Shown in pieces: positions 4,672-64,000 of a DNA stretch of 64,000 nt. This stretch comes from Acidobacteriota bacterium (lineage in GTDB: Bacteria > Acidobacteriota > Aminicenantia > Aminicenantales > Saccharicenantaceae): the NCBI GenBank assembly GCA_039683095.1, contig JBDKSB010000012.1, forward strand, positions 929,846-993,845, given 5' to 3'. The notes below the pieces were generated by a model. The model was not told the origin of the DNA, searched no databases, and saw only the letters and a list, made by a program, of their open reading frames with translations. The position numbers and the translations under genes were made by a program. The first letter of the stretch is position 1. Each line of letters begins with the position of its first letter.

Positions 4672-4672
4672 G

Positions 4673-5515: not shown

Positions 5516-5522
5516 GGCCGGA

Positions 5523-5531: not shown

Positions 5532-5609
5532 AGCCCCGCCCGGCGTGTCTTGCGCCGCCCGGTGCTTCTTTGTTATGATAAGGCCGTAAATCCGGAACAA
5601 GGAGGTCTG

Positions 5610-5810: not shown

Positions 5811-5902
5811 GGCCGTCCGCGAACGGCATTTTCTCCTTTCATTCCGGCCGGGATCCCCGAGGGGGACGCCACCCGCGGCCGGATCGAACCCGGAAGGGTC
5901 CA

Positions 5903-18830: not shown

Positions 18831-19091
18831 GATCGGAATTCGGGGCGGAAGGCGGAACGGGCATCGGCGCGACATGGCACTCTCCTCTCGCCCCCCTTAT
18901 ATCACTCGCGCGCCGGTCGTCAAGGATGAAGGCCGGCCGGCCGTGAAGGCGGGATCGACCGCCTCCTCGGGGACGCCGGCGGACTTGACAACGCCCCCTT
19001 TTAAACTGAATATAGGGACAACTCTGAAGGAGGCCATCATGGGGAATCATCGAGGTCTCGTTCTGCGTTTCCATCCCGCCCGGAGGGTCTC

Positions 19092-41871: not shown

Positions 41872-41905
41872 CGTTCCTCCTTCGGGATTGGGACGGCCGC
41901 CGGCA

Positions 41906-41944
41906 ACTTTACCTCGCCCCTGTCCCCCTGTCAACGCCTTGACA
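41906..41944. promoter_or_regulatory. Palindromic -35 pair TGTCAA-CGCC-TTGACA, plus -10 TAAAGT (minus strand), in the divergent GH51 / exonuclease region
   Basis: The perfect inverted repeat at 41929-41944 supplies a TTGACA to both strands. On the minus strand it reads TTGACA-N17-TAAAGT ahead of GH51. The spacer contains GGGGGACAGGGG, the core of the window's repeat family. Confidence 0.4.
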
Positions 41945-42634: not shown

Positions 42635-45073
42635 CTATTTGATCTTCCACTCGTGGACGCCGGCCGACCAGTCCGGCTGGAGCCGGACCTCGAGGCGCAG
42701 GGCCCTGGTCCGCACCGGCGCGAACTTGACCGTGTTCCAGGCGTCCTTGGCCGTGCCGTAGGCGCCGGCCGGGCTGACCGGGAGCCAGTCCTCGCCGGCT
42801 TTGTAGAGGATGCGCCAGGAGGCGGGCACGCGGCAGCCGCCGGCGCCCGAGTCGTCGAACCAGTAGACGGACGCTTCGGAGACGCGCACGGGCGCCTCGA
42901 AAGCGTAATCGATCCATTCGGACGTGCCCTTCTTCGGCCACCAGTGCATGTAGCCCGCGGCGTCGTCCGAGCTCTCGGGCTCGAACTGGTCGTTGATCCG
43001 TTTCGGGCTGACCGCGCCCTCCGAGGCCGTGACCGCCGCCTTGGCCGCGAGGCCCGGCTCGCGGGCGACGCGCGCCCTGGACGGGTCGCGGGCCAGCCAG
43101 ACGGCCATCTCGCTCCGGCCCCGGTTGGCCCAGGCGTAATACGGGATGAGGGTCAGGGGCTTCTTCTCGGTCACGATCTTGCCGGCCTTTTCGCTGACGG
43201 CCTCGGCCGCGCCGGTGATGACGACGACGCCGTTGAGGAGTTCCGGCCTCATCTCGGCGCTGAGCGCGGCGCCGTCGGGCAGGACGAGGTTCGCGACCCG
43301 GCCCTCGTTGTCAGGCCCCTCGGCGCAGTAGACGAGCGGGCCGCGCTCGACGGCGACCAGGCCGCGGTCGGCCTCGACGGCCTCGTTGGCCGCGACCCGG
43401 CGGACCGGCATTGGCAGCGACAACTCGACGACGTCGCCGGCCTTCCAGGTCCGGTTGACGAGGGCGTAGCCCTTGTCGAGCGCCAAGGCCGCCGGCGCGC
43501 CGTTGACCTTGAGCGCCGGCTGGCCGGCGGGCGGCTCCGGATAGGAATAGAGGCCGGTCGGCACCGGACGGTTCAGGGCCCAGCCGGGGATGCGCACGGC
43601 CAGGGTGAATGCGGCGTCTTTCGCGGGCCGGACCTCGATGCGGATGTCGCCCTTCCAGGGATACTCGGTCGTCTGGACGAGCTCTAGGTCCGTGCCGCCG
43701 GCCTTCATCCGGCCCGTCCCCTGGGCATAGAGATTGACGTAGACCCGGTCGCTCGCGGCCGCGTAGAAATACCCCGGCACCGAGGTCAGGATGCGGGCCA
43801 CGTTCGGCGGGCAGCAGGCGCAGCTGAACCACGGCACCCGCTCGTGCTGGCCGAACGAGGCCAGGGGGTTGGGGTAGAAGAACCGGTCGCCCGAAAGCGA
43901 GATGCCCGAGAGGACGCCGTTGTAGAGGATGCGCTCCATGACGTCGGCGTACTTGGCGTCGAGCTCCAGGCGCTGCATCCGCGAGTTCCACAGGAACGTG
44001 GCGATGTTGGCGCACGTCTCGGCGTAGGCGCTGGCGTTCGGCAGGCGGTAGGGCGGGCCGTAGCCCTCCCAGCCGCCGGCGGCGCCGATGCCGCCGGTGA
44101 TGTAGAGCTTGGTCCCGGCCATGTCGGCCCAGATCTTGTCCAGGGCGGCGATGTAGGCGGCCTCCCCGGTCAGGGCGGCGACGTCGGCGGCCCCGGCGTA
44201 GAGATAGCCGGCCCGGACGGCGTGGCCGACGGCCTCCGTCTGCTCGACGAAGGGCTTGTGGTCCTGGGCGTACTCGCCGTAGAGGAGCTCGGTCCGGCCC
44301 TCGTTCTCGTAGGGGATCCGGCCTTCGGCCCGGCCGCGGGCGTCTATGAAGAACTTGGCCAGGTCGAGATACTTGCGCGCGCCGGTGACCCTGTAGAGCT
44401 TGACCAGGCCGATCTCGATCTCCTCGTGGCCGGGGGGATTGGCGCGCTTGCCGGGTCCGAACTCGCGGGCAACGAGGTTGGCGCTCTTGACCGCGACATC
44501 GAGCAGGTTCTTCCGCCCGGTGGCCTGGTAGTGAGCGGCCGCGGCCTCGTAAAGATGTCCGAGGTCGTAGAGCTCGTGGCTCATGTAGAGGTAGGACCAG
44601 CGCTCCCGGCCGACCCAGGGCTGGGGCGGCGGGCCGCCGATAGTGCGGGCGGCGTAGAGATAGCCGTCCGGCTCCTGGGCCGCGGCGATCTTGGCGACGA
44701 GGCCGTCGACGTACTTGGCCAGCGCCGGGTCGGCGTGCGTCGCCAGGGCGTAGGAGGCCGCCTCGATGATCTTGTAGACGTCGGAATCGTCGAACGGGAA
44801 GCTGGAGCGGTACTGGCCGCCCTTGGCCCCGGCCAGGGCGGCCGCGGCCAGTTCGAAGTTCCTGACCCGGCCCGTCTCTTCGCACATCTTGAAGATATGG
44901 GGGATGGTCACGGTGCGGTTGATCTCCAGGCGCGGCGCCCAGAAGGCGTCCGTCAGGTGCACGTCGGTGAACGGCACGGGCGCGGCCGGGTAGTCGGCCT
45001 GGGGCGCCTGGTCGCAGGCCGCGGCGAGGGCAAGGATGATCGCCAGGGCCGCTGTCGCTCGGACTCTCGTCAT
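42635..45073 (-). CDS. GH127 beta-L-arabinofuranosidase (HypBA1 / DUF1680 family) lipoprotein
   Basis: Start MTRVRATAALAIILALAAAC (ATG 45073, AGGAGG 7 nt upstream). The ORF-track start at 45436 adds 121 junk codons. Cys-rich Zn site FSCACCPPNVARI and a large (alpha/alpha)6 region. Confidence 0.85.
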   Translation of the reverse strand: MTRVRATAALAIILALAAACDQAPQADYPAAPVPFTDVHLTDAFWAPRLEINRTVTIPHIFKMCEETGRVRNFELAAAALAGAKGGQYRSSFPFDDSDVYKIIEAASYALATHADPALAKYVDGLVAKIAAAQEPDGYLYAARTIGGPPPQPWVGRERWSYLYMSHELYDLGHLYEAAAAHYQATGRKNLLDVAVKSANLVAREFGPGKRANPPGHEEIEIGLVKLYRVTGARKYLDLAKFFIDARGRAEGRIPYENEGRTELLYGEYAQDHKPFVEQTEAVGHAVRAGYLYAGAADVAALTGEAAYIAALDKIWADMAGTKLYITGGIGAAGGWEGYGPPYRLPNASAYAETCANIATFLWNSRMQRLELDAKYADVMERILYNGVLSGISLSGDRFFYPNPLASFGQHERVPWFSCACCPPNVARILTSVPGYFYAAASDRVYVNLYAQGTGRMKAGGTDLELVQTTEYPWKGDIRIEVRPAKDAAFTLAVRIPGWALNRPVPTGLYSYPEPPAGQPALKVNGAPAALALDKGYALVNRTWKAGDVVELSLPMPVRRVAANEAVEADRGLVAVERGPLVYCAEGPDNEGRVANLVLPDGAALSAEMRPELLNGVVVITGAAEAVSEKAGKIVTEKKPLTLIPYYAWANRGRSEMAVWLARDPSRARVAREPGLAAKAAVTASEGAVSPKRINDQFEPESSDDAAGYMHWWPKKGTSEWIDYAFEAPVRVSEASVYWFDDSGAGGCRVPASWRILYKAGEDWLPVSPAGAYGTAKDAWNTVKFAPVRTRALRLEVRLQPDWSAGVHEWKIK

Positions 45074-45085
45074 CTTCGGCCTCCT

Positions 45086-45181
45086 AAAATGGGGGACATG
45101 ATACCCGTTTCCTGTTTTCTCGCCTGTCGAAAAGGCGGGATATGACGCCGATTCCTGATCCTCCCGGAATGATATCATAGC
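45086..45181 (-). repeat. Composite repeat element, copy A (~95 bp): full unit, degenerate unit, partial unit. Lies in the GH127 5' region and includes that gene's SD-proximal sequence.
   Basis: 45086-45119 aaaatgggggacatgatacccgtttcctgttttc. 45130-45155 aaaaggcgggatatgacgccgattcc. 45161-45181 ctcccggaatgatatcatagc. The reverse complement aligns with the composites at 52144-52216 and 55312-55380. Confidence 0.7.
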
Positions 45182-45243
45182 ATTTTCCGGCCGGTTTTCC
45201 CGGCTTTCGGCGTTCAGGCCCGATCCGGGTCGGGGGAAGACCG

Positions 45244-45275
45244 GGGAACGGGCGTCATGTCCCCCATCCTTTCGG
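45244..45275 (+). repeat. Inverted partial copy of the repeat unit (GGGGAACGGGCGTCATGTCCCCCATCC), 45-75 bp upstream of the araB -35
   Basis: Its reverse complement matches ATGGGGGACATGAYRCCCGTTCC of copy A with 2 mismatches. Confidence 0.65.
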
Positions 45276-45319
45276 GCCGGCCCCCAGGGGAATCCTGCGT
45301 GGACGTTCCCGCAGACGGG

Positions 45320-45347
45320 TTGCTCCCGGAGCCGGCCTGAGTATAAT
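45320..45347 (+). promoter_or_regulatory. Sigma70-like promoter TTGCTC-N16-TATAAT for araB
   Basis: TTGCTC at 45320-45325 and TATAAT at 45342-45347, ~40 nt upstream of ATG 45388. Confidence 0.5.
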
Positions 45348-45387
45348 AGAAGCCGGCAGTAGCCGGTCCAAGTTCGAGCGGAGGTCC

Positions 45388-47088
45388 ATGCCCATGAAAG
45401 CCGCGAAGTACGCCCTCGGCCTCGACTTCGGCACAAACTCGGTCCGGGCCCTTGTCGTCAACATCGGCAACGGCGACGAGGTCGGCACGGCGATCTTCGA
45501 CTACCCCGGCGGCTCCGCCGGCATCCTGCTCGATCCGAAAGACGCCAACCTGGCCCGGCAGAACCCGGCCGACTGGATCCTGGGCATCGAGAAGACCGTC
45601 CCGGCCGCCCTGGCCGCGGCGAAAAAGAAGGTCAAGGGCTTCGACCCTGCGGCCGTCGTCGGCGTCGGCGTCGACACGACCGGCTCGACGCCTCTGCCGC
45701 TCGATCGGGCCGGCAAGCCCCTCGCTCTCTATAAGGAATTCCGAAAGAACCTCAACGCCCAGGCCTGGCTGTGGAAGGACCATACCGCCCACGCCGAGGC
45801 GGCCGAGATCACCGCCCTGGCCGCGGCCGAACACCCCGAGTACCTGGCCAAGTGCGGCGGCACCTATTCCTCCGAGTGGTTCTGGAGCAAGATCCTCCAC
45901 TGCCTGCGGACGGATCCCAAGGTGGCCGCGGCCGCCTACTCCTGGGCCGAATGCGCCGACTACATCCCGGCCCTCATGACGGGCTCGACCGATCCTCTCC
46001 GGATGAAGCGCAGCCGTTGCGCCGCCGGCCACAAGGCCATGTTCAACGACGCCTGGGGCGGCCTGCCGGCCAAGGCCTTCCTGGCCAAGCTCGATCCGCG
46101 TCTGGGCGAGCTCCGCGACCGCCTCTACCAAAAGACCTTCACGTCCGACGTCCCGGCCGGCGGCCTGACCAAGGACTGGGCCAGGAAGCTGGGCCTCCGC
46201 CCCGGCATCGCCGTGGCCGTCGGCGCCTTCGACGCCCACCTCGGCGGCATCAGCTCCGGCGTCGAGACCGGCCGCTTCGTCAAGATCATCGGCACCAGCA
46301 CCTGCGACATCTGCGTCTGGCCCGCTTCCAAGAAGCTGCCCGATATCCCGGGCCTGTGCGGCATCGTCGACGGCTCGGTCCTGCCCGGCTACCTCGGGCT
46401 CGAGGCCGGCCAGTCCGCCGTCGGCGACATCTTCAACTGGTTCGTCAACGTCATCGAGCCCGGCGGTCCGAAGAAGGGCTCGCACGCCGTCCTGACCCGG
46501 GGCGCGGCGGCCCTCAAGCCCGGCGAATCGGGCCTCCTGGCCCTCGACTGGCTCAACGGCAACCGGACCGTCCTCGTCGACCAGCGCCTGACGGGCCTCA
46601 TCGTCGGCCTGACCCTGCACACCACGCCGGCCGAGATCTACCGGGCCCTCATCGAGGCCACGGCCTTCGGCGCCCTGACCATAATCCGGCGCTTCGAGGA
46701 GTACGGCGTCCAGATCCGCGACGTCGTCAACTGCGGCGGCATCGCCGAGAAGAACCCGCTGGTCATGCAGATCTACGCCGACGTCACCGGCCTGGAGATG
46801 AAGATCGCCCGCTCGAGCCAGACTTGCGCCCTGGGCGCGGCCATGGCCGGGGCCGTCGCGGCCGGACGCCCGGGCGGCGGCCACGCGACCTTCGCCGAGG
46901 CCCAGGCCGCCATGGGCGGGATCAAGCGCACGGTCTACAAACCCGACGGCGCCCGCCACAAGGTCTACCTCGAGCTCTTCGCCCTCTATCGCGAGCTCCA
47001 CGACGCCTTCGGCACGAAGGCCTGGAGCGGCAGCCTCTATAACGTGATGAAGGACCTGCTGGCCCTCAAGGACCTCCAGAGGAGGTAG
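45388..47088 (+). CDS. araB: Ribulokinase
   Basis: FGGY kinase with AraB-specific length (~565 aa). N-terminus YALGLDFGTNSVRALVV, C-terminus ...GAAMAGAVAAG. GGAGG is upstream; the second ATG at 45394 is the more likely true start. Confidence 0.9.
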   Translation: MPMKAAKYALGLDFGTNSVRALVVNIGNGDEVGTAIFDYPGGSAGILLDPKDANLARQNPADWILGIEKTVPAALAAAKKKVKGFDPAAVVGVGVDTTGSTPLPLDRAGKPLALYKEFRKNLNAQAWLWKDHTAHAEAAEITALAAAEHPEYLAKCGGTYSSEWFWSKILHCLRTDPKVAAAAYSWAECADYIPALMTGSTDPLRMKRSRCAAGHKAMFNDAWGGLPAKAFLAKLDPRLGELRDRLYQKTFTSDVPAGGLTKDWARKLGLRPGIAVAVGAFDAHLGGISSGVETGRFVKIIGTSTCDICVWPASKKLPDIPGLCGIVDGSVLPGYLGLEAGQSAVGDIFNWFVNVIEPGGPKKGSHAVLTRGAAALKPGESGLLALDWLNGNRTVLVDQRLTGLIVGLTLHTTPAEIYRALIEATAFGALTIIRRFEEYGVQIRDVVNCGGIAEKNPLVMQIYADVTGLEMKIARSSQTCALGAAMAGAVAAGRPGGGHATFAEAQAAMGGIKRTVYKPDGARHKVYLELFALYRELHDAFGTKAWSGSLYNVMKDLLALKDLQRR

Positions 47089-52232: not shown

Positions 52233-54209
52233 TCAGATCTCTCTGAAGCCGATCCCTCTGAGATATTCGAACGTCGGGTCGTAGAAGGACGGCTGGCGCG
52301 TCGGATCGTCCCGGTCCCCCGGCGGCACGACGATGACCATGCCCTGGCGCGCCCGCGTCAGGAGAACGCGGTAGGCGTTCTTCTGGTACTTCTGCCTCTC
52401 GGAATCCCTGATGTTCCGCCAGGCGTCTCCCAGGAACGACTTGTGCGTCCACCCCGTTCGCGAATATCGAAAATCCGCGTCCCAGGTGACGCAGGCCCAA
52501 TCGAGCTCCAGGCCCTGGACATCGAATTCCGTGGCCACGTCCTCCAGGTAGTAGGACGACCGCACATCCTGCTTGCCGTCGAGGAACCAATGGACCGGAT
52601 CCATCGGTGCCTTGACATGGATGGCGTGAGGCCGGAGACGCTCCGCTTGCGAGGAGACCACGATGCCGTATCGCTCGGTCCCCCGCGCCTGGGCCTTGAG
52701 CCACGATTTGGCCTGGCCGAGGTCGCGGGTGATGGCGATCGGATATCTGTCCCGCAGCTCGGCCAGGGTCCGGCGCGCCCCCGCGTCGTCCAGGTCCAGG
52801 ACCTGCTTGACCAGAAGGGACACGTTCTCGGCCCGGAAGGAGCGCATGGATACGGCCAGGTGAAGCGAGGGGACGAAGCTGACGTGCCGTCGGGGCTCCA
52901 GCTGCTCGAGAACCCTCCCGGCGCCGTATTCGCTGTCCGTCAGCTGGGGAGAGATGAAGACGCGCCAGTCGGGAAAAGACCGCGTCAGGGAATCGATCCA
53001 TTCGGAGATCCCGGCCTCGCCCCGGTTGATCTCCTGCCCTCCTCCGACGAGGCAGATAACGACGGCCCAATCCGGGTGCCGATCGAGGCAGGAGATCAGG
53101 AACTCGGGCTCCGAAAATCGGAAGCCCGGCCTTTTCTTCTTGCGCTTCATGAAATCCGCGGTCATGCCGCTGTTCCAGGCCCGTTGGGCTTCGTCGAACA
53201 GGGCCACATGATCGACCGGGGGGCGCTTCTCGTCGACAAGACACTCGTCCCGGAAATGATGGACGTTCTGGATGAAGGCCTTGACCCGGCTCTTGGCTTC
53301 GCCTTTCTTGATCCTTTTGCCATGGGCCTTCGTCCGGACGACCATATCACGGGCCAGGGCCTCCTGGAGGATCTTGACCAGCGGGCCGTTCCCGGACAGG
53401 AAGACGCTGTGGTGCGCGTCGGCCTGATCCATATGCTCCGTCGCGACGTTGAGACCGACCAGGGTCTTGCCCGCCCCGGGCACGCCGGTGACGAAGCAGA
53501 TGGATTTGTGCGCCCGCGCCTTGGCGTCTTGAATGACCTTCGAGATCGCGTTCGTCGTCTGGCTGAGATTGACGGCCCCGGCGTCGCTGCGGGATATTTC
53601 GGCGACCGAGTGGCTTCGGTAAAGCGCCAGGGCCGCTTCCATGATGGTGGGCGTCGGGCTGTATCGGCCGGTCTTCCATGTTCGCCAATCGATCTTTTCT
53701 CCGTCGGCGAAGTCCAGCACGCCCTGGATGACTTCGCCAAGCGCCTCCCCGTCGGTTTTCAGGGGAAGCAGGACGTTGTCGTTCCGGGGAGTCAGGGCGA
53801 TGCCCGGCGGAACGCGCCCGGCGCCGGTCGCGATCAGAACGGGCGCGACGAGATGATCGTGGCTGGTTTCATGGAAATTCTTCAGGTCCAGGGCATAATC
53901 CATAACCTGGTCGAGGGCATAGGACGCGAATTCCCTGGCTCCGACCTTGAATTCCAGGACGAAGATGACCGGCCCGATGACGAGCAGGACGTCAATCCGC
54001 TCCCCCATGCGGGGGATGGAGTACTCGAAGTGGATGCCCCCCGAACGGGACCCCAGCGCCGCGCGGAGGATCCCGATCTCCGCGACCCAGGCGGCGCGTT
54101 GCTCGAGCGTGTCGGGGAAGTCGCTGGCCAGCGCCAGCTTCCCGACGATCTCCTCGGTCGAGGACCGGAGGAAGGCGGCGATCGTATCGGAGTAGTATTC
54201 GCGCTTCAC
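52233..54209 (-). CDS. DUF2075-type protein: N-terminal PD-(D/E)xK nuclease-like domain plus a P-loop (SF1 helicase-like) ATPase; Nhi-like architecture
   Basis: 658 aa. N-terminal [22 protein letters not shown] (D...E.K). Walker [16 protein letters not shown]-terminal helicase-like region ending [16 protein letters not shown]. The start overlaps the upstream gene stop as ATGA. Confidence 0.75.
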
Positions 54210-55103: not shown

Positions 55104-55311
55104 GGGCTCGCTCCTGTTGTCGCCGTCCGCGGGACGGCCGTTCGCCCGGCAGTATCCAACGAGTGGAGGCGCTCTGTCAACCCGGGCCGGCGGGGAGAAT
55201 AGTGGGGCGCCCGGGATCGGGATAAGCGCCGGGGAAGCCGGACCGGCGGAACGGGCCGGCGGCCGCGGTCAGGCCTTGGGCGGGCCGGGAGCGGACGACG
55301 GGCGAATAATT

Positions 55312-55393
55312 AAAAAAGTATCATTCCCGGCTTGTTATCAGGCGGGAAAATGGGAAACGGGTATCGTGTCCCCCATTTTAATCCCCCATTTTA
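55312..55393 (+). repeat. Composite repeat element, copy C (~80 bp), between the hybrid-kinase 3' end and the OsmC operon 5' end
   Basis: Reads aaaaaaGTATCATTCCCGGCttgttatcaggcGGGAAAATGGGAAACGGGTATCGTGTCCCCCATTTTAatCCCCCATTTTAgg. It aligns position by position with copy B and with the reverse complement of copy A. Confidence 0.7.
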
Positions 55394-56473
55394 GGCGGCG
55401 GGGGCCTCGCCGCCCGCGACCGGCAGGGCGACGAAGAATTCGACCCACTTGCCGGGCTGGCCCTCGACCCAGATGCGGCCCTTGTGCTTGTCGACGACCG
55501 TCTTGCAGATGTAAAGGCCAAGGCCCGAGCCTTTGACGCCCTCGGTGCCCTTCTGCTTCAGGCGCTCGAACCGCTTGAAGAGCCGGCCCTTGTCCTCCTC
55601 GGGGATGCCGACGCCTTCGTTGCGGACCGAGAAGACGATCTCGCCGCCCTTCCGCGCCAGGCGGAGCCGGACCGGCGTCCCTTCGGCGCCGTACTTGACG
55701 GCGTTGTTGACCAGGTTGTTGACCAGGATCTTCAGCAGGGCCGGGTCGCCGTCCACGACGGGATCGCCCTCGAACTCGGTCACGATCGGCATCTTCTTGA
55801 GGTTGTCCCGGAAGCCGGGCGTCTTCAGGGCCTCGGCGACGACCGCCGAGGCGAACGGGACGCGCTCCTTGAACGTCGCCAGCCCCTCGAGGTCCATCTT
55901 GGACAGGTCGATGTAGGTGCGGATGATGTCCTCGAGGTAGAGGCAGTTGCGGAGGATCGTCCCGACCATCTTCTCCTGTTCGGGCTCGAGCTTGCCGAAG
56001 TAGCCCCGGTAGAGGGTCTCGGCCGTCGTCTGGAGGGCCGCCAGCGGGCTCTTGAGCTCGTGGGAGACGATGGCCATCAGGTCGAGCATCTTGGCCCCGG
56101 CCGCGCTCTTCCGGGCCTCGAGGGCGTTGGCCACGACGTTGCGCATCTCCTCCGGCGTGAACGGCTTGGGGACGTAGTCGAACGCGCCGGCCTTGAGGGC
56201 CTCGCGGGCGGTGTCCACGCTGGAGTATCCGGTGAAGATGATGACCGTCGTGCCGGGCCGGTCCCGGCGCAGGGCCTTGAGGACCTCCATGCCGCCGAGA
56301 CCGGGCATCTTCAGGTCCGTGACGACGATGTCGTAGTCCTTGGCCATGGCCATGGCCAGCCCCTGATCCCCGGACGAAGCGGTGTCGATCTCGAAGCCGC
56401 TCCCGGCGAAGATCCGCCGCGAGCTCTTGAGGACGATGTCCTCGTCGTCTATGAACAGCAGTTTGGGTGCCAT
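55391..56473 (-). CDS. Hybrid response-regulator receiver / histidine kinase (REC-HisKA-HATPase)
   Basis: Start at MAPKLLFIDDEDIV (ATG 56473); the ORF-track N-extension is junk. REC domain with DIVVTDLKMPG, H-box VSHELKSPL and ATP-binding GSGLGLYICK. Confidence 0.85.
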   Translation of the reverse strand: MAPKLLFIDDEDIVLKSSRRIFAGSGFEIDTASSGDQGLAMAMAKDYDIVVTDLKMPGLGGMEVLKALRRDRPGTTVIIFTGYSSVDTAREALKAGAFDYVPKPFTPEEMRNVVANALEARKSAAGAKMLDLMAIVSHELKSPLAALQTTAETLYRGYFGKLEPEQEKMVGTILRNCLYLEDIIRTYIDLSKMDLEGLATFKERVPFASAVVAEALKTPGFRDNLKKMPIVTEFEGDPVVDGDPALLKILVNNLVNNAVKYGAEGTPVRLRLARKGGEIVFSVRNEGVGIPEEDKGRLFKRFERLKQKGTEGVKGSGLGLYICKTVVDKHKGRIWVEGQPGKWVEFFVALPVAGGEAPAA

Positions 56474-56499
56474 GGTGCCTTCTTCCCCCCGCCTCGGCG

Positions 56500-58422
56500 T
56501 TAGCGCGTCGGCAGCTTGATGATGAATTCCGTGCCCGCGCCGACCTTGCTGCGGACGTCGATCTGCCCGCCGTGCCGCTGAACGGCCCCGTAGACCATGG
56601 GCAGCCCCAGCCCCGTCCCCTGGCCCCGGTCCTTGGTCGTGAAGAACGGCTCGAAGATCTTGTTCAGGTTCTCCTCGCTGATGCCGGCGCCGGTGTCGGC
56701 CACCCGGATGACGGCCATGCCGGTCTCCGGCTCGAGCGACGTCGCGATGGTCAGCTGCCCGCCGTGGGGCATGGCGTCCGCGGCGTTGACGGCCAGGTTG
56801 TTGATGACGGCCCGGATCTCGGCGGGGTCGACGCTGACCCGGGGCAGGCTCGGGTCCAGCTCCTTGACGATCCGGATGTTCTGGAAGGTGACGTGCTTCT
56901 CCAGGATGCGCAGGCTGTCCACGATGAGGGCGTTGAGGTCGGACAGCGTCCGCTCGGACTTGCTGTCCCGGGCGAAATCGAGGATGCCCCGGACGATGCC
57001 CCGGCAGCGCAGGGTCTCGTCCCGGATGACCTTGAGGTCCTCCTCGTACGGCGTGCCCTTCATGTCCTCGAGGAGCAGGCTGCTGTAGGTCAGGACGCCG
57101 GTCAGGGGATTGTTGATCTCGTGGGCGATGCCCGAGGCCAGGCGTCCGATCGAGGCCAGCTTTTCGGACTTGAGGATGGTCCGGTCGGCCAGCTCGGTCA
57201 GCTGCCGGTCCCTCTCTTCGATGGCGTCGACCATGCCGTTGAAGGCCTGGGCCAGGGCCCGGGCATCCTCGTCGTCGTGCGGATCTGTCTCGATGCGGTG
57301 GTAGAAGCCCAGGGCCATCTCGGTCGAGGCGTCGATGATGCGCTTGACCGGCTTGGTGTAGAGGTTGATCAGGTAGCCGGCCAGGGCCAGGGCCAGGAGC
57401 GTCGAGACGAGCAGGACCAGGAGGTAGGCCATGGTCGTGTTCCGGACGACGACGTCGAACTTCTTCTTGAGGACGCCGACGTAGAGCATGCCCTGGGCCT
57501 TCTGGTCGAAGTCGAAGAGGGGCGTGTAGCCGGAGATGTACCAGTCGTTGACGACGAAGGCCTTGCCGACCCAGGCCGTCCTGTCCTCGAAGACCTTGCG
57601 GTAGACCTCCTCCGAGGCCTGCGTGCCGATGGCCCGCTTGCCGGCCGCGTCGACGACGTTGGTGGCCACCCGGATGTCGCCGAGGAAGATCGTGGTCGTC
57701 CCGGCGTCCTTGCCGTCGATCCGCTCGTCCTTGAACAGGAGGCGCTTGAAGCGGTCGACGAAGGCGGCGTTGTTGTTGAGCAGGACTGCCCCGTAGAGGA
57801 TGCCGGTCATGCGCGAGCCGTCCCGGATGGGCGCGGCGATCTTGATGACCAGGGCCCGGTTCTCGACGGTCGACGGCCGCGGCCGGCCGTGCGACGTCGG
57901 CACGACGGGGATGATGGTCCGGCGGGCCAGGTCCTCGCCCTCCCGGGCGATGGTCTCGTACTCGAGGACGCCCGTCCCGGCCACCAGGGTCCCGGTCCGG
58001 CGGACCTCCTGGATGGTCCGGTAGCCGCTCATGCTGTCGCCGAAGGATTCGAAGGCGTTGGCCCGGACGAGGATGGTCCCGTCCGCGTCGACGACGTTGA
58101 CGATGTCGAAGCCGAACTCCCGCTTGATCTGGACCAGCTTCTCGAACAGGAAGGCCCGGTCCCCGGCGGCCGAGGCCCGGATGAGCTCGGGCGTCTTGGC
58201 CATGGACTGGATGATCCGCGACCGGTTGTCGATCTCCTCGCGGTAGAGCTCGCTGGCCGAGGTCAGGCTGGCCCGCACGGTCGCGTAGGCGTCGCGGACG
58301 ACGTTGGTGTTGATGACATTCAGGCCGATGATGATCGACAGGACGCCGCTCAAGAGGACGATGCCGAGCAGGCTGAAGACCAGCTTGAACCGGATGTTCG
58401 AGCGGGCCAGCTGTTTGATCAT
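56500..58422 (-). CDS. Sensor histidine kinase with a periplasmic double-Cache-like domain, HAMP, HisKA and HATPase
   Basis: Two TM helices ([21 protein letters not shown] and [21 protein letters not shown]) flank a ~280-aa periplasmic domain. H-box IAHEINNPL and G-box GTGLGLPMV. The start overlaps the response-regulator stop as ATGA. Confidence 0.85.
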
Positions 58423-58823
58423 CGCAGGGCGCGGCCGACCTTGGCCAGCAGCTCGTCAAGGTCGACCGGCTTGGTCAGGAACTCGTTGGTCCCGGGGAGG
58501 AACGAGTCCGCCTGGTCCATCGAGAAGCGCGAGTTGGTGACCTGGTCGATGGCCGTCAGGATGATGATCGGGATGTCGCGGAACTCCCGGTACTTCGACG
58601 CCTCGCGGCGGCTGCGGATGACGTCGGCCGCCTCGAAGCCGGCCGTGTCCGTCTCCATCATGACATCGAGGATGACCAGGTCGGGCCGCTCGGCCAGAAG
58701 GGCCTTGAGGCCGTCCGCGCCGCTGTAGGCCGCCGCCACGTCGTAGCCGTGGGCCCGCAGGACCTGGGCTAGGCTGGCCACGAGGTCCCGGTCGTCGTCG
58801 ACGACGAGGATCTTCTTGCTCAT
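58419..58823 (-). CDS. Single-domain response regulator (CheY-like receiver)
   Basis: Starts MSKKILVVDDDRDL, 134 aa, with phospho-acceptor Asp in LVILDVMME. Its ATG overlaps the hydrogenase small-subunit stop as ATGA. Confidence 0.85.
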   Translation of the reverse strand: MSKKILVVDDDRDLVASLAQVLRAHGYDVAAAYSGADGLKALLAERPDLVILDVMMETDTAGFEAADVIRSRREASKYREFRDIPIIILTAIDQVTNSRFSMDQADSFLPGTNEFLTKPVDLDELLAKVGRALR

Positions 58824-59350
58824 GTGTTCAAGACCTTGTAGATGACGTTCCGCTCTTCCCAGGCCTTGTTCCTCTCGTATATGTCGATCGGGAACTCGAC
58901 CTGCTTCATCTCCACGGGCGCGGCCTTCTTGTCGACCAGGCCGAGGGCCAGGGCGACGCCGTAGATGATGGCCTCCGGCCGCGGCGGGCAGCCGGGGATG
59001 TAATAGTTGACCGGGACGGCCTTGGCCCCGCCGCCGGCGACGTTGTAGGTGTCGAACCAGCAGCCGCCGCCCGTGGCGCAGGAGCCGATGCCGAAGACGA
59101 GCTTGGGCCCGGGCATGGCCGCGTAGGCCTTCTTGACCAGCGGCAGGGTTGGCCGGGTGACGGCGCCGGAGAGGAGCATGACGTCGGCGTGGCGGGGCGA
59201 CCCGACCAGCTTGATGCCGAACCGCTCGACGTCGTAGTACGGCGTCAGGACGTTCAGGATCTCGATGTCGCAGCCGTTGCAGGCGCCGCTGTTGCAGTGG
59301 TAGACCCAGAGGGAGCGGGGGAAGCACTTTTGGGCGATCTTGGCCAGCAT
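58820..59350 (-). CDS. [NiFe] hydrogenase small subunit, NuoB/HycG-like (group 4)
   Basis: Cluster ligands CNGC, GSCATGGG and GCPPRPE. 176 aa. Confidence 0.85.
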   Translation of the reverse strand: MLAKIAQKCFPRSLWVYHCNSGACNGCDIEILNVLTPYYDVERFGIKLVGSPRHADVMLLSGAVTRPTLPLVKKAYAAMPGPKLVFGIGSCATGGGCWFDTYNVAGGGAKAVPVNYYIPGCPPRPEAIIYGVALALGLVDKKAAPVEMKQVEFPIDIYERNKAWEERNVIYKVLNT

Positions 59351-59351
59351 G

Positions 59352-59897
59352 TCAGTCTCCTGTCGTCTCCGGCCGCTCGTAGCGCTCGGTCTTCTCGAGC
59401 TCCTTCGGCTGGAAGGTGTCGGTGGCCCGGCGCAGGACGGTCCGGGCCTCCAGGCTGTCGTAGCGGTAGCCCGTCAAGCCGAGCTTGTCGATGGCGTTGG
59501 CCGTTTCCATGTCGAAGCAGCGGCCGCAGCGCTGGCAGGTCAGCATGAACAGCTCCAGGCTCTCGGTGATGTCGCCGCGGTCGTTCGTCGCCTGCTCGAA
59601 GCGCGGGGTCATGGTGATGGCCTTCTCCGGGCAGACCTCGGCGCAGCGGCCGCAGTAGGTGCAGCGGGAGCCGTCGTAGAGAAGGACGCGGATCTCCTGG
59701 CAGAGGTCGCGGACCATGATCGTCCGGGCCGGGCAGTGGTTGGCGCAGCCGGCGCAGCCGACGCACTTGGCGTGGTCCCAGTGGGGGGCGCCGCGGAAGT
59801 TCTCCGGGGCCGGGCGGGGCGTGAAGGGGTACTTCAGCGTGACCACCCCCGGCTTGGCCACCATCAGGACCTGTTTGATCTTGCTTGCGAGCCACAT
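59352..59897 (-). CDS. 2x[4Fe-4S] ferredoxin subunit, HycF/NuoI-like
   Basis: Start at MWLASK (ATG 59897). Two CxxCxxCxxxCP motifs: CVGCAGCANHCP and CTYCGRCAEVCP. Confidence 0.85.
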   Translation of the reverse strand: MWLASKIKQVLMVAKPGVVTLKYPFTPRPAPENFRGAPHWDHAKCVGCAGCANHCPARTIMVRDLCQEIRVLLYDGSRCTYCGRCAEVCPEKAITMTPRFEQATNDRGDITESLELFMLTCQRCGRCFDMETANAIDKLGLTGYRYDSLEARTVLRRATDTFQPKELEKTERYERPETTGD

Positions 59898-59917
59898 GGC
59901 GTTTCTCCCCTGATCCC

Positions 59918-60820
59918 TCAGATTCCGGCCACCGCCAGCCCGACCGCGCCGAGCGAGACCAGGATCAGGAGGGCGTAGATCTTGACGGCCTGGTCGATCC
60001 GCAGGCGCGGGTTGGTCGAGCCGACCACGGCGATGAGGACGAAAACGGCGAGCGTGCCCAGCAGCTGGGTCAGGATGTCGCCGGCATAGGTGCCCGTCCG
60101 CAGGAAAGGCAGGAAGACGGCGACGAAGAGCCAGGCGTAGAACATCTGCTTCATCATCATGGCGTAGCGGAACAGGCCGTAGTCCGGCCCGCTGTACTCG
60201 ATGTACGGCCCCTCGAGGATCTCGATCTCGGCCTCTGGGATGTCGAACGGCTGCTTGGCCACGAAGGCCTGCAGGGCCGCCAGGTAGGCGGCCAGCATGA
60301 CCGCCGTGGCCACGCTGTAGCCCAGCCCGGCCGTGCCGAAGACGGCCGTCCCCAGGCCCAGGCTGTGGGTCCGGACCGCGCCGAGGATGAGGGTCATGGC
60401 CAGGACGGGCTCGATCATGACCATGGTCACCATCTCCCGGCTGGCGCCGATGGCCGCGAAAGTGTTGCGGCTGGCCAGGGCGCCGACGAGGACGGACACG
60501 CCGCCGAGCGTCAGGAGGTAGATGATCGTGATGGCGTCGACGCGGCCGCCCAGGGCGTTGACCTTCCCCCCGAAGGGGATGAGGGCGACGACGGCCAGGA
60601 TCGAGGCGAAGGCGGCCGGCGGGGCCAGCTTGAAGGCCCAGTTCCGGGCCGAGTTGATCCGCTCCTTGCCGAGGAGCTTGAACAGGTCGTAGTAGGGCTG
60701 GACGAGCGGCGGGCCCTGGCGGGACTGGACCCTGGCCGTGATCCTCCGCGTCACCCCTTCGAAGAGCGGGGCCAGCAGGAGGAACAGGAGGACGTTGATG
60801 AAGATGGCGATGATGCTCAT
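59918..60820 (-). CDS. Membrane subunit, NuoH/HycD/EchB-like
   Basis: Start at MSIIAIFINVLLFLLLAPLFEG (ATG 60820), 300 aa with 8 TM helices. The ORF-track 755-aa version is a frame fusion. Confidence 0.8.
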   Translation of the reverse strand: MSIIAIFINVLLFLLLAPLFEGVTRRITARVQSRQGPPLVQPYYDLFKLLGKERINSARNWAFKLAPPAAFASILAVVALIPFGGKVNALGGRVDAITIIYLLTLGGVSVLVGALASRNTFAAIGASREMVTMVMIEPVLAMTLILGAVRTHSLGLGTAVFGTAGLGYSVATAVMLAAYLAALQAFVAKQPFDIPEAEIEILEGPYIEYSGPDYGLFRYAMMMKQMFYAWLFVAVFLPFLRTGTYAGDILTQLLGTLAVFVLIAVVGSTNPRLRIDQAVKIYALLILVSLGAVGLAVAGI

Positions 60821-60822
60821 GG

Positions 60823-62505
60823 TCAGCTCCTCCCGGCCTCGGGCCCGCGCGACAGGGCCTCGAGCTCCGTCCGTCCGACGACGCGGCGGCGGCCCGACCC
60901 GGCGTCGATGACCGCGACCCGGTCCGTGCAGGAGAAGCAGGGATCGATCTGGCCCAGGATGATGGGGAAATCGGCGAACTGGTTGTTGAGGAGCATGGCC
61001 GGCACGGCCTGGAGGTTGGCGTACGTGGGGGCCCGGACGCGCCAGCGCTCGGGCCGGTTCTCCTCGCCGGTGATGACGTAATGGACCGCCTCGCCACGGG
61101 GCGCCTCGACCATGGACAGGCCGTGGCGGAGCGGCGGCAGGGCCTCGGGCGCCTCGGTCAGGAGCCTTCCCTCGGGCATCCCGGCCAGGGCCTGGCGCAG
61201 GATGGCGATGGACTCGAAGATCTCCAGGACGCGGACGAGGAGCGTGCCCCAGACGTCGCCCGAATCCGTGACCGGGACGTTGAAGGCCAGGTCGTCGTAG
61301 GCCGCGTAGGGATGGTCCCGGCGGACGTCGATGTCGAGGCCGCGGGCCCGGGCCACGGGCCCGACCAGGCTCCAGCGGGCGGCCTCGTCCTTCGACAGAT
61401 AGCCGACGCCCTTGGCCCGGCGGTGGATGGCGCTGTCGCCGATGATCGAGTTCTTGAGAACGAGGACCTCCTTCTCGAGCGCGGCCAGGACGCCCTCGAT
61501 CTCGGTCCGCATCTCCGGGGTGATGTCGCGGCGGACGCCGCCGACGACGATCATGCCGTAGGTCTTGCGGTTGCCCGTGATCCGCTCCGCGAGCCACATG
61601 ACCTTCTCCCGGACGCGCCAGGCCTGCATGAAGACCGTGTCGAAGCCGATGAGGTGGCCGGCGACGCCGAGCCAGAGGAGGTGGGAGTGGAGGCGCTCGA
61701 TCTCGAGCATGATCGTCCGGATGTACTCGGCCCGCCGCGAGATCTTGAGCCCGGCGGCCGCCTCGACGGCCTGGCTGTAGCAGCAGGCGTGGACGGAGCC
61801 GCAGATGCCGCAGATGCGCTCGGCGACGAAGGGGACCTCGTTGTAGCTGACCTGCGTCTGGCAGAGCTTCTCGATGCCGCGGTGGGTCATGAAGCCGCGG
61901 TAGTCGCAGCCCTTGATCGTCTCGCCGTCGACGTAGACCGCGAAGTGGGCCGGCTCGTGGAGGCTGACGTGGAACGGGCCTACGGGGACGACCGTCGTCC
62001 CCGGCGGCGCCTCGTCGAGCTGGTAGGCCGCGTCCTCGGCCGACGGCGGCTCGAGGTTGTACGGCACCTCCTTGCGGAGGGGATAGACTCCGGCCGGCCA
62101 GTCGTCGGCCAGGATGAGCTTCTTCGGCTTGGGATGGCCGGTGAACTTCAGGCCCAGCAGGTCCTGGTATTCGCGCTCGGTCCAACCGGCGCTGGGGATG
62201 TCGGGCGTGATGGATTCGAAGACCGGGTCGACGGCCGGGGCGGCGGTCCGCAGGACGACGGCGAAGCGGCCGGCGTCGAAGGCGAACAGGTGGATGAGCC
62301 CGAGCGTGCCGTTCCGGGCGATCTCGTCCCAGCCGACGCCGACCATGTAGCGGCCGCCGAGGTCGATGATGGCCCTGGCCGCGGGCCGCACGGCCCGGCG
62401 GTCGATGTCGACGAACAGGCGGCCCGGGGCCGGCGAGGCCAGGCCCTTGAGGTCCGGCCCGAGGCGGCTCCTGAGCTCTGTCTCGATCCTGGCGATGGCG
62501 TCCAT
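60823..62505 (-). CDS. [NiFe] hydrogenase large subunit fused to a NuoC-like N-domain (HycE/EchE-like)
   Basis: Start at MDAIARIETEL (ATG 62505, AGGAGAG upstream). N-terminal 30-kDa NuoC-like domain. Ni-binding RICGICGSVH and C-terminal DPCFSCTDR motifs. Confidence 0.85.
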   Translation of the reverse strand: MDAIARIETELRSRLGPDLKGLASPAPGRLFVDIDRRAVRPAARAIIDLGGRYMVGVGWDEIARNGTLGLIHLFAFDAGRFAVVLRTAAPAVDPVFESITPDIPSAGWTEREYQDLLGLKFTGHPKPKKLILADDWPAGVYPLRKEVPYNLEPPSAEDAAYQLDEAPPGTTVVPVGPFHVSLHEPAHFAVYVDGETIKGCDYRGFMTHRGIEKLCQTQVSYNEVPFVAERICGICGSVHACCYSQAVEAAAGLKISRRAEYIRTIMLEIERLHSHLLWLGVAGHLIGFDTVFMQAWRVREKVMWLAERITGNRKTYGMIVVGGVRRDITPEMRTEIEGVLAALEKEVLVLKNSIIGDSAIHRRAKGVGYLSKDEAARWSLVGPVARARGLDIDVRRDHPYAAYDDLAFNVPVTDSGDVWGTLLVRVLEIFESIAILRQALAGMPEGRLLTEAPEALPPLRHGLSMVEAPRGEAVHYVITGEENRPERWRVRAPTYANLQAVPAMLLNNQFADFPIILGQIDPCFSCTDRVAVIDAGSGRRRVVGRTELEALSRGPEAGRS

Positions 62506-62524
62506 ACGAATCTCTCCTGACTTG

Positions 62525-64000
62525 CTACTTGCCGCTCTTTCCGCCGGCGAACTTGAACAGGCCGCGCAGGCCCGCGAACATGCCCCGATCCGTGTACCGG
62601 TTGGCGTTGCCCAGGTCCTGGTAGCCGCAGAGCCAGGTCGGCGCCTCGACCTCCTTCGAGCCGCCCGCCCGCCGCAGCAGGACACCGAGGCCGAATCCCA
62701 GCCCGAGGACGAGCAGGACGGCGAGCGGCGCCGCGGCCGCGCCGAAGGGCAGGTCGCTGACCCCGGTCAGGCGGAGGCCCAGGGCCGAGGCCGACATCGG
62801 GCCGGCCGGCCGGGCGACGGCGTCGGCCAGGAAGAAGCCCTCGGACCGCCCCAGGGCGGCGAGGACGAGCTTGACCGACAGGACCGGAAAGAGCCCCTGG
62901 ACGAGGGCCACGGCCGCGAGGACGATCTTGGGCGCCAGCATCGAGGCCGGGACCTCGCGGATGGTCTTGCCGACGTTCCATTCCGAGCCGGCCGAGGTGA
63001 AGGCCATGCCGAAGAACTTGACATAGCAGGCCAGGGTGACGGCGCTCGTGAACAGGGCGATGATGCCGAAGAGGACCAGGGCGAAGGTCCCGTCGCCGGC
63101 CAGGAGCGTGCTCGAGATGATAGTCCACTTGCTGGAGAAGCCGCTGAAGGGCGGCATGCCGGAGATGGACAGCGAGGCGATCCCGGCGATGACGGCGCTC
63201 GCCGGCATGAGCGTGATGAGGCCGCCGAGCTTGTTGAGGTCCTTGGTCCCGGTGGCGTAAAGGATGCTGCCGCTCGTGAGGAACAGCAGTCCCTTGAAGA
63301 TGGCGTGGTTGAGGACGTGGAACAGGGCCCCGATGACCGCGGCCACGGCCAGGGCCCGCAGGACCGGGGTCCCTGTCGTCCCGAGGTAGAGGACGGCGCC
63401 GGCGGCCAGGACGATGTAGCCGATCTGGCCGATCGAGCTGTAGGCCAGGAGGCGCTTGGCGTCGCTCTGCTTCATCGACTGGATGGTGCCGATGAGGAGC
63501 GTCACGGCGCCGGTCGCGGCCACGATCAGGCCCCAGGTCCGGCCGTCGAAGGCAGCGTTGTCCTTCGGCGTCATGAACAGGAACGTCCGCATCAGCCCGT
63601 AGATCCCGGTCTTGAGCATGACGCCGCTCAGCAGGGCGCTGACGGGCGACGGGGCGATCGAGTGGGCGTCGGGAAGCCAGAGCTGGCCGAGGGGCCAGAC
63701 GCCGGCCTTCAGGCCGAAGCCGACGAGGAGGAAGGCGAAGAAGCCGAGGAGCGGCAGGCCGCCGGTCGCGCCGAGCTTGGCCGTGATCCCGGCCAGGGGC
63801 TCGCCGAACGAATGGCCGCGGGCGAAGAACGCCCCGGCGACGACGAGGAGCCAGGCCAGCTCCATGAGGGCCAGGTACTTCGCGGCGCTGCGCCGGTTCT
63901 CCGCCTTCCGGCGCTCGAAGCGGACCAGGAAGAACGAGGCGACGGTCATGATCTGCCAGGCCAGGGTGAAGCCCAGGCCCAGGTCGTCGACGGTGACCAG
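62525..64000 (-). CDS. Antiporter-like membrane subunit (NuoL/MnhA/HyfB family), 5'-truncated by the window edge
   Basis: The reading frame stays open beyond 63950. Multiple TM helices and the conserved WLPDAHSIAPSPVSALLSGVMLKTGIYG motif. Confidence 0.8.
   Translation of the reverse strand: MVTVDDLGLGFTLAWQIMTVASFFLVRFERRKAENRRSAAKYLALMELAWLLVVAGAFFARGHSFGEPLAGITAKLGATGGLPLLGFFAFLLVGFGLKAGVWPLGQLWLPDAHSIAPSPVSALLSGVMLKTGIYGLMRTFLFMTPKDNAAFDGRTWGLIVAATGAVTLLIGTIQSMKQSDAKRLLAYSSIGQIGYIVLAAGAVLYLGTTGTPVLRALAVAAVIGALFHVLNHAIFKGLLFLTSGSILYATGTKDLNKLGGLITLMPASAVIAGIASLSISGMPPFSGFSSKWTIISSTLLAGDGTFALVLFGIIALFTSAVTLACYVKFFGMAFTSAGSEWNVGKTIREVPASMLAPKIVLAAVALVQGLFPVLSVKLVLAALGRSEGFFLADAVARPAGPMSASALGLRLTGVSDLPFGAAAAPLAVLLVLGLGFGLGVLLRRAGGSKEVEAPTWLCGYQDLGNANRYTDRGMFAGLRGLFKFAGGKSGK

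Follow-up and report, generated by a model that had tools for sequence, protein, structure and literature searches.

The stretch of DNA analyzed here (64,000 nucleotides of contig JBDKSB010000012.1, assembly GCA_039683095.1, from an Acidobacteriota bacterium; hereinafter, the window) ends with eight co-directional minus-strand genes in which the subunits of a Hyc-type group-4 membrane-bound [NiFe] hydrogenase are followed by a stand-alone receiver protein (RR, for response regulator) and two histidine kinases, namely a transmembrane sensor kinase with a Cache-type extracytoplasmic domain (HK) and a kinase that starts with a receiver domain (REC-kinase). Comparison of related loci shows that the RR has a fixed place in a conserved cluster of 10 genes, and the evidence described below points to a dedicated role of this protein in the hydrogenase system. 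The listing of open reading frames (ORFs), direct reading of the DNA and translation all yield the same eight genes, and every domain assignment is backed by both Pfam and NCBIfam, in agreement with the gene order and coordinates given in an earlier interpretation of this DNA from its letters alone (the sequence-only reading). The features of the locus are:

62525..64000, minus strand: HyfB/HycC-like antiporter-type membrane subunit, 5' end cut by the window edge (Pfam Proton_antipo_M, E 4.8e-51)
60823..62505, minus strand: HycE-type [NiFe] large subunit, 560 amino acids (aa) (Pfam Complex1_30kDa, NiFeSe_Hases and Complex1_49kDa)
59918..60820, minus strand: HycD/NuoH-like membrane subunit, 300 aa (Pfam NADHdh, E 1e-56)
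59352..59897, minus strand: HycF/HyfH-like 2x[4Fe-4S] subunit, 181 aa (Pfam Fer4 families; NCBIfam)
58820..59350, minus strand: HycG/NuoB-like small subunit, 176 aa, with CxxC...C...CP cluster ligands (Pfam Oxidored_q6, E 2.5e-27)
58419..58823, minus strand: stand-alone receiver, RR, 134 aa (Pfam Response_reg only)
56500..58422, minus strand: transmembrane Cache sensor histidine kinase, HK, 640 aa (Pfam sCache_3_3, Cache_3-Cache_2, dCache_3, HisKA and HATPase_c)
57442..57783, minus strand: sCache_3_3-like membrane-proximal module of HK, residues 214-327 (Pfam sCache_3_3, E 4.7e-29)
55391..56473, minus strand: receiver-first kinase, REC-HisKA-HATPase_c, 360 aa (Pfam Response_reg, HisKA and HATPase_c)
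55348..55378, minus strand: 11-bp hairpin AAAUGGGGGAC ... GUUUCCCAUUU in an AT-rich spacer, starting 12 nt past the REC-kinase stop (from sequence and fold)

The intergenic distances from the antiporter gene through the REC-kinase gene are 19, 2, 20, 1, -4, -4 and 26 nt. The two negative values correspond to 4-nt ATGA overlaps, one between the TGA stop codon of the small-subunit gene and the RR start (58820-58823) and the other between the RR stop and the HK start (58419-58422); these overlaps and the 26-nt gap, all described in the sequence-only reading, can be read directly from the DNA. The gap between the HK and REC-kinase genes contains a Shine-Dalgarno sequence, GGGGGGAAGAAGG, and good, well-spaced Shine-Dalgarno sequences precede the REC-kinase gene and the genes for the large, NuoH-like, iron-sulfur and small subunits; direct reading of the junctions detected no usable one ahead of the RR gene or the HK gene, a pattern that fits termination-reinitiation coupling. 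A consensus scan from 64000 to 55391, which is weak at the G+C content of ~68%, found no minus-strand promoter or terminator; the scan identified a promoter-like site at 55180-55151(-), ahead of an OsmC gene. The hairpin downstream of the REC-kinase gene is a candidate for the end of the transcription unit, not a canonical terminator. The AT-rich spacer at 55300-55391 (-) also contains two copies of the direct repeat AAAATGGGGGA (55381-55391 and 55369-55379), the second of which is the 5' arm of the hairpin. ATGA overlaps are frequent in operons, also between unrelated neighboring genes, so that chance could account for the overlap by itself, but not for the linkage between the RR and small-subunit genes across loci.

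The hydrogenase large subunit retains both CxxC motifs that ligate nickel, with C232/C235 in RICGICGSVH and C523/C526 in DPCFSC, and all four cysteines are invariant among 19 large-subunit homologs. A NuoC-like domain (Complex1_30kDa, residues 33-149) is fused at the N-terminus, ahead of the NuoD/hydrogenase domain, and the 31-aa C-terminal extension that follows TDR aligns with the extension of HycE and is expected to be the substrate for cleavage by HycI. The top match of this protein in the PDB is Escherichia coli HycE (7z0s_E; 411 bits, E 7e-122), aligned through the C-terminal extension, with P. furiosus MbhL and the complex-I NuoD/NuoCD proteins trailing far behind. Among the other subunits, the antiporter-like one has hydrogenase 4 subunit B as its top NCBIfam model (E 2e-91), and the 2x[4Fe-4S] one matches the formate hydrogenlyase complex iron-sulfur subunit (E 9e-32) and hydrogenase 4 subunit H (E 2e-28); a look-up of the NuoH-like protein gave no entry. 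Given the nickel motifs, the NuoC fusion, the extension, the HycE match and the scores of the HycF/HyfH and HyfB models, the enzyme is a Hyc/Hyf-type group-4 membrane-bound [NiFe] hydrogenase and not a NuoD. The features expected of HycE-type group-4 enzymes are found, namely the Ni/Fe motifs, the NuoC fusion together with the extension and HycI, and the small, 2x[4Fe-4S], NuoH-like and antiporter-like subunits. The sequence-only reading was accurate on the NuoC-fused large subunit with its two motifs and on its identity as a hydrogenase; of the 'Ech/Hyc-like' character it proposed for the complex, the Hyc-like part stands, whereas the Ech-like part does not.

Beyond the window edge, the locus continues on the Logan contig L001, positions 819-4252 of which are 100% identical to window positions 64000-60567 and which extends 818 nt farther upstream. 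On this contig, the antiporter subunit is complete (619 aa), and the start of its gene overlaps the 3' end of a gene for a HycI-type maturation protease. Because the hycI gene sits just past the edge, the lack of maturation genes in the window is partly an edge effect; the earlier remark that neither hyp nor formate dehydrogenase genes are visible in the window holds, with this reservation, for the ORFs checked.

The upstream half of the operon is known from relatives (84-89% identity) and from the L001 extension, not from the window. In the relatives, three genes precede hycI: those for HydB/ShyB-like and HydG/ShyC-like proteins, which resemble the NAD(P)H module formed by the sulfhydrogenase beta and gamma subunits, and that for a MopB-family protein similar to the alpha subunit of formate dehydrogenase. 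As an example, in the close relative L082, the sulfhydrogenase beta/gamma-like genes (HydB/HydG-like, AsrA/AsrB-like) occupy positions 5730-7636, within a cluster for a membrane-bound Hyc-type hydrogenase, and the MopB gene occupies positions 3769-5727, with equivalents in L002-L086. The MopB subunit of every relative carries Gly or Trp in the position of the catalytic selenocysteine (Sec) or Cys, and the site of the catalytic Arg333 is taken by Thr, Ala, Pro or Val, whereas the neighboring His and, two positions upstream, an acidic residue are conserved; this protein is either a NuoG-like scaffold without a cofactor or an unusual enzyme of the MopB family. The clusters of the relatives encode no HycB, in the stead of which there are the HydB/HydG-like subunits, and a catalytic formate dehydrogenase partner connected through the HycB ferredoxin, as required for formate hydrogenlyase (the HydDB group 4a function), is not found in these clusters. 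Because the MopB subunit lacks the catalytic residues and its neighbors resemble an NAD(P)H module, the complex is Hyc-like in its hydrogenase and membrane parts, yet not a canonical formate hydrogenlyase. The HydB/HydG-like genes suggest an NAD(P)H-linked energy-converting hydrogenase, for which NAD(P)H as the electron donor is a reasonable guess.

The upstream MopB protein was considered as a candidate for FdhF and dropped given that the catalytic Sec/Cys and Arg are missing in every relative. In Aminicenantes relatives, a glycyl-radical enzyme encoded upstream was likewise rejected as a pyruvate formate-lyase because its NCBIfam match is trans-4-hydroxy-L-proline dehydratase (1286 bits, which exceeds the cutoff), and with it the link of the operon to formate production was abandoned. 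The genes for this dehydratase, which is easily mistaken for pyruvate formate-lyase, and its activase are located directly upstream of the hydrogenase region (L082 1-2576).

To characterize the genomic context, one genome per species was scanned, and 80 loci were kept. The exact large subunit comes from an Acidobacteriota metagenome-assembled genome (MAG), and its near homologs are from Aminicenantes. Among the loci with at least 65% large-subunit identity in which the region is readable, the cluster of about 10 genes has the order MopB, HydB/AsrA-like, HydG/AsrB-like, HycI, antiporter, large, NuoH, FeS, small, RR, and the RR gene, encoding a protein of 131-155 aa (mostly 133-134), directly follows the small-subunit gene in 61 of the 61 loci. 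The RR-bearing taxa include Aminicenantes and other Acidobacteriota, Vicinamibacterales, many Spirochaetota, Chromatiaceae (Lamprocystis and Thiodictyon), Chitinibacter, Chitinilyticum, Deefgea, Rhodocyclales, Thermodesulfobacteriota and Oligoflexia, so that the linkage spans at least five phyla. In two Thermodesulfobacteriota-type loci (L045 and L051), the antiporter and NuoH genes are relocated upstream, and the RR gene still adjoins the small-subunit gene. Approached from the opposite side, three of three loci picked by RR similarity alone contain the same cluster; these three represent three downstream variants, one with the RR only, one with the RR and REC-kinase, and one with the RR, Cache-HK and REC-kinase. 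A more distant group of HycE-like hydrogenases (38-47% identical; L066-L081) has a different gene order, NuoH, small, large, antiporter(s), FeS, HycI, and no RR; HydB/HydG-like genes are often found upstream in this group as well. The cluster is also present in cultured strains, namely Chitinibacter tainanensis DSM 15459, Chitinilyticum aquatile DSM 21506, Deefgea chitinilytica and Lamprocystis purpurea DSM 4197. An apparent fusion of the small subunit with the RR in L017 is an artefact of a masked run of N.

The ATGA overlap between the small-subunit and RR genes is limited to the closest Aminicenantes-type loci, and the gap in the other loci is 6-240 nt. The conserved trait is therefore the adjacency of the two genes rather than translational coupling, which the sequence-only reading had emphasized and which is supported at this locus by the ATGA junctions and the missing Shine-Dalgarno sequences but does not hold as a conserved feature. 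In this clade, the related proposal that the complex is stoichiometrically co-produced with its sensory partners is plausible as far as the RR is concerned.

The RR is a receiver domain with no output domain, in which the catalytic residues are D9, D10, D11, D53 (codon 58665-58667), T90 and K118; in an alignment of 62 RR orthologs, D9, D11, T90 and K118 are invariant and D53 is present in 58. The family is marked by three signature blocks: M(M)ETDTAGFE (55-64), just after the phospho-acceptor, LTAIxQVTNSRFS (89-101), at beta4-alpha4, and SFLP (107-110), before beta5. Its conservation is such that it amounts to essentially one cluster among 1.84 billion representatives at 50% identity, the neighbors of which are a wider set of stand-alone receivers with only parts of the motifs, and its members bear only generic names in the source records examined ('response regulator' or 'CheY-like chemotaxis protein'). 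Across loci, the identity of the RR to the window protein closely tracks that of the large subunit (r = 0.89; small subunit, r = 0.84). The AlphaFold2 (AF2) model of the RR has the REC fold, with a predicted local distance difference test (pLDDT) score of 81, whereas residues 93-107, located where alpha4 lies on the output face of a typical REC domain, score below 50 although they form the most conserved stretch of the protein; this combination is typical of a partner-binding element. A Foldseek search with the model retrieved generic receivers only, 25-35% identical, and gave no clue to the target.

Informative variants come from four betaproteobacterial loci without an adjacent kinase (a Rhodocyclales MAG, Chitinibacter, Chitinilyticum and Deefgea). 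In these Glu-type RRs, D53E is combined with D10N/K in all four and with D13A in three, and all 35 other family-conserved positions are kept, including ETDTAGFE, QVTxxRFS and SFLP. Because these proteins have lost the phosphorylation chemistry and retained the family-specific surface, that surface appears to serve an output partner common to all carriers, and the hydrogenase is the simplest candidate given that its genes are the only ones that all carriers have in common.

Several observations on the surroundings of the RR gene and its paralogs can be added. In Aminicenantes relatives, a second stand-alone receiver and a 165-aa protein without a family match are encoded upstream of MopB (L082 2666-3043 and 3093-3590); this receiver is ~33% identical to the operon RR and has the MMME.D..G motif in common with it. 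A similar receiver follows the REC-kinase in some Spirochaetota (L017 17257-17592; L020, L021 and L057). After the Glu-type RR, Deefgea encodes a HupE/UreJ-like protein, a putative nickel transporter judged by eye from the N-terminal sequence (L065 14144-14767), and Chitinibacter a divergently oriented LysR-like regulator (L055 14225-15115, minus strand).

The kinases show a different pattern of conservation. HK consists of the first transmembrane helix (TM1), a bimodular Cache-type extracytoplasmic domain (~38-338), TM2, a linker, HisKA (H434) and HATPase_c; the REC-kinase has an N-terminal receiver with D53, T81 and K103, followed by the kinase part with H138. Both contain the H-box histidine and HATPase_c, and the RR has the acidic pocket, Asp, Thr and Lys, that is, the complete set of two-component residues. 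By contrast, the 'three-protein phosphorelay' of the sequence-only reading does not hold in the strict sense: a Pfam search of the RR, HK and REC-kinase identified no histidine phosphotransfer (HPt) domain, and the receiver of the second kinase is N-terminal, so that the system comprises one stand-alone receiver and two kinases. The same search found no DNA-binding or other output domain in the three proteins, so that the suggested control of hydrogenase expression is not indicated.

Of the related loci, 32 encode both kinases, 11 the REC-kinase only and ~16 neither (some of these are truncated contigs); in total, the REC-kinase is present in ~43 loci and the Cache-HK in ~35, whereas the RR is always there. 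The Cache-HK is nearly always accompanied by the REC-kinase or by a REC-only remnant, for example, in L036. Such remnants, found in some Spirochaetota loci (L036 16252-16650, also L037, L038 and L041), are 132-aa receiver parts that follow the Cache kinase, with the kinase half missing. The kinases are optional, lineage-specific additions, and their spread is nested, with the RR more widespread than the REC-kinase and the latter more widespread than the Cache kinase. This nesting suggests that the RR is the core component, the REC-kinase its proximal kinase and the Cache-HK the upstream sensor.

In the AF2 model of HK, residues 50-330 have pLDDT above 90 and form a long N-terminal helix followed by two modules: an alpha/beta module at 76-215, which is distal, and a second module at 216-318 that runs directly into TM2 and hence is membrane-proximal. 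The second module matches positions 2-105 of the 107 in the Pfam sCache_3_3 profile. Among all PDB sequences, the only significant matches of the sensor region are 8py0_A (E 4.8e-6) and 8py1_A (E 2.7e-3), which are formate-bound sCache ligand-binding domains described by Monteagudo-Cascales et al. (PMC11804620). The conserved formate contacts in these domains, proposed as a marker, are an Arg (R142 in PacF), T145, T158 and a Tyr (PMC11804620). In HK, R251, T254 (+3), T267 (+16) and Y299 (+48) align with R103/T106/T119/Y152 of 8py0 and R106/T109/T122/Y155 of 8py1, and all four are invariant among 41 HK homologs (48-95% identity); they correspond to the formate-ligand residues of PacF, R3 and R6. 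Thus, both the profile and the Arg/Thr/Thr/Tyr set of the formate-binding Cache domains are present, and HK seems to sense an extracytoplasmic small carboxylate, most likely, formate. Sensing of H2 or of the energy state, as proposed in the sequence-only reading, is unlikely for this kinase, in which the sensor is formate-Cache-like and extracytoplasmic, between the two TM helices.

Taken together, these observations lead us to propose, with a probability of roughly 0.5, that the RR is a dedicated component of the HycE-type hydrogenase system, not a generic neighbor, and directly controls the enzyme, with formate as the signal. Under this proposal, the RR would act by contacting another protein, in the simplest case the hydrogenase complex, whose activity, assembly or coupling it would change, and the phosphorylated or Glu-mimic RR would be the active form. 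In the lineage represented by the window, two kinases would have been added as the input: the transmembrane Cache kinase would read the extracytoplasmic carboxylate, most likely formate, and the receiver-first kinase would probably operate between the sensor kinase and the RR, whereas the ATGA overlaps in this clade would tie the synthesis of the RR and the kinase to translation of the structural genes. The foundation consists of direct observations, namely the gene content, the junctions, the catalytic and ligand residues, the synteny, the co-variation of the RR with the enzyme and the retention of the motifs in variants that cannot be phosphorylated, from which we infer what the RR acts on, in which direction phosphotransfer runs, which ligand is sensed and what the physiological effect is. 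A more specific version, in which the RR is a regulatory subunit that docks on the peripheral arm of the enzyme and, depending on its own phosphorylation, gates the activity or coupling of the complex, the two-kinase cascade reads extracellular formate and the enzyme may be NAD(P)H-linked, is a tentative suggestion that we consider possible but doubtful.

Several points weigh against direct control of the enzyme in response to formate. We found no fusion of the small subunit with the RR, or any other gene fusion, and the conserved adjacency would also fit a dedicated regulator that acts elsewhere. Most of the RR-only loci keep Asp53, which implies that unlinked kinases must exist there. With respect to the ligand, the similarity of the Cache module to the PDB domains is modest (~30 bits), the 'two Phe' part of the published formate marker could not be confirmed, and the candidate module is membrane-proximal, whereas the characterized formate-binding modules are single or distal. 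The distal module of HK has invariant polar residues of its own, so that a second or different ligand is possible. Furthermore, a link between formate and the substrate of the enzyme is not established because the MopB subunit of all relatives lacks the catalytic Sec/Cys and Arg, and this part of the operon was itself read in the relatives rather than in the window.

Among the alternatives, a chance association of the signaling genes with the hydrogenase in a gene-dense genome could be invoked, considering that ATGA overlaps are common among unrelated adjacent genes and that both kinases are absent from many relatives; for the RR, however, an adjacency that holds in each of the 61 readable loci, spans at least five phyla, survives rearrangement and is recovered from the RR side effectively refutes this explanation. 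A more serious contender, close to the idea of the sequence-only reading, is a transcriptional cascade in which the RR is a phosphate shuttle or sink and the output belongs to an unlinked DNA-binding response regulator that sets the expression of the operon. The transcription of E. coli formate hydrogenlyase responds to formate through FhlA, which provides a precedent for such control, and two kinases combined with output-less receivers resemble branched pathways in which single-domain response regulators modulate the flux; the paralogous stand-alone receivers of the relatives (in L082, and after the REC-kinase in L017, L020, L021 and L057) would fit the same scheme. Nevertheless, in the loci examined, no DNA-binding regulator is conserved in or beside the cluster in any lineage, the RR is kept where no kinase adjoins it, and its conservation follows the enzyme, not the kinases. 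Moreover, four lineages combine D53E and D10N/K with the intact signature surface, which makes no sense for a shuttle or sink that cannot be phosphorylated. We regard such a cascade as unlikely, albeit deserving serious consideration.

The position of the RR gene suggests yet another explanation. In E. coli, HycH (136 aa) and HyfJ are encoded right after the small subunit, in hyc (hycG-hycH-hycI) and in hyf (hyfI-hyfJ), respectively; the RR occupies the same operon slot as HycH and is similar in size, so that it could be a maturation or assembly factor that replaces HycH/HyfJ and acts in the processing of the large subunit. The HycI protease encoded in the cluster and the HycE-type C-terminal extension of the large subunit would agree with such a role, as would the translational coupling of the RR to the small subunit and the lack of a detectable HycH-like protein among the conserved cluster genes of the relatives. 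The RR is, however, a bona fide REC domain with no similarity to HycH and with the phospho-acceptor pocket intact in 58 of 62 orthologs, and the dedicated kinases in many lineages favor a signal-responsive switch over a constitutive chaperone. Accordingly, a maturation factor appears rather improbable, although this role and that of a switch are not mutually exclusive.

Elsewhere in the window, the minus strand at 52233-54209 encodes a Schlafen-group-3-type helicase (658 aa; PF09848, E 1.5e-82). This gene falls in the 2-kb bin with the lowest GC content of the window (0.634), and the close relative L082 has different small genes at this position, so that the helicase gene looks like a local insertion. 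Three large glycoside hydrolases, the types being GH106 alpha-L-rhamnosidase, alpha-L-arabinofuranosidase and GH127 beta-L-arabinofuranosidase, are encoded at 15681-18875, 39448-41934 and 42635-45436, all on the minus strand, and would fit a fermenter that degrades plant polysaccharides.

Respiratory complex I has its closest living relatives in the group-4 hydrogenases, which are also major sources of H2 in anoxic sediments, digesters and aquifers, environments rich in Aminicenantes and Spirochaetota. To our knowledge, the regulation of these enzymes is known almost only from the enterobacterial FhlA/HycA. If the proposed role of the RR is correct, a receiver that is as conserved as a structural subunit in several phyla and is retained as a phosphomimetic variant at some loci without kinases would represent a new form of post-translational enzyme control and a new target class for single-domain response regulators, with a respiratory-type membrane complex placed under direct two-component control instead of transcriptional control. 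The predicted formate-sensing HK would extend the formate-Cache family from chemotaxis to kinase signaling. The presence of the cluster in cultured strains makes the question of the RR function directly testable.

Each part of this system belongs to a known kind, be it the Hyc-type hydrogenase, the REC domain, the histidine kinases or the formate-type Cache module; the anatomy and conservation of the system are solid, and the mechanism is what we infer from them. A literature search yielded nothing relevant on a receiver tied to a group-4 or group-4f hydrogenase and no description of a formate-type Cache kinase tied to a group-4 hydrogenase operon. Compared to formate hydrogenlyases 1 (hyc: HycB-I and FdhH; 7Z0S/7Z0T) and 2 (hyf) of E. 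coli, the complex is alike in the HycE-type large subunit with the NuoC fusion, the Ni-ligand motifs, the extension and HycI, and in the HycC/HyfB-, HycD-, HycF- and HycG-like subunits. It differs in the cluster order, I-C-E-D-F-G with no HycB, and in the partner module, which in the relatives consists of the MopB protein without catalytic residues and the HydB/HydG, AsrA/AsrB-like subunits; moreover, there is no FhlA, HyfR or HycA, and a stand-alone receiver occupies the hycH/hyfJ slot. The HydB/HydG-like and MopB genes of the relatives resemble, respectively, the beta and gamma subunit genes of the group 3b NADP-coupled (sulf)hydrogenases and the cofactor-less MopB of the NuoG type, but here, outside the window, such genes are joined to a membrane-bound Hyc-type module.

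The HoxBC-HoxJ-HoxA and HupUV-HupT-HupR systems also tie a hydrogenase locus genetically to a two-component system. However, those rely on a soluble group-2b sensor hydrogenase bound to a PAS kinase of the cytoplasm and on an NtrC-type response regulator that binds DNA, whereas the locus described here combines a group-4 membrane enzyme with a kinase that senses through an extracytoplasmic Cache domain and an output-less RR, and thus lacks the components of these H2-sensing systems. The formate Cache sensors PacF, Atu0526, R3 and R6 (Cache_3-Cache_2 and sCache_3_3; PMC11804620) have the sCache_3_3 profile and the Arg/Thr/Thr/Tyr residues in common with HK, but these are chemoreceptors whereas the output here is a histidine kinase. 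Furthermore, the candidate formate module of HK is membrane-proximal within a bimodular sensor, whereas in PacF formate is bound by the distal module and the sCache forms have a single module (PMC11804620). The RR itself is most readily compared to the single-domain regulators CheY (acting on FliM), DivK and CpdR (acting with ClpXP): like these, it consists of the REC domain only, has an intact pocket and presumably binds a partner. We know of no single-domain response regulator that targets a hydrogenase or a complex-I-like enzyme, and unlike CheY, DivK and CpdR, the RR family is marked by invariant motifs of its own and by an alpha4 region that is longer and probably flexible.

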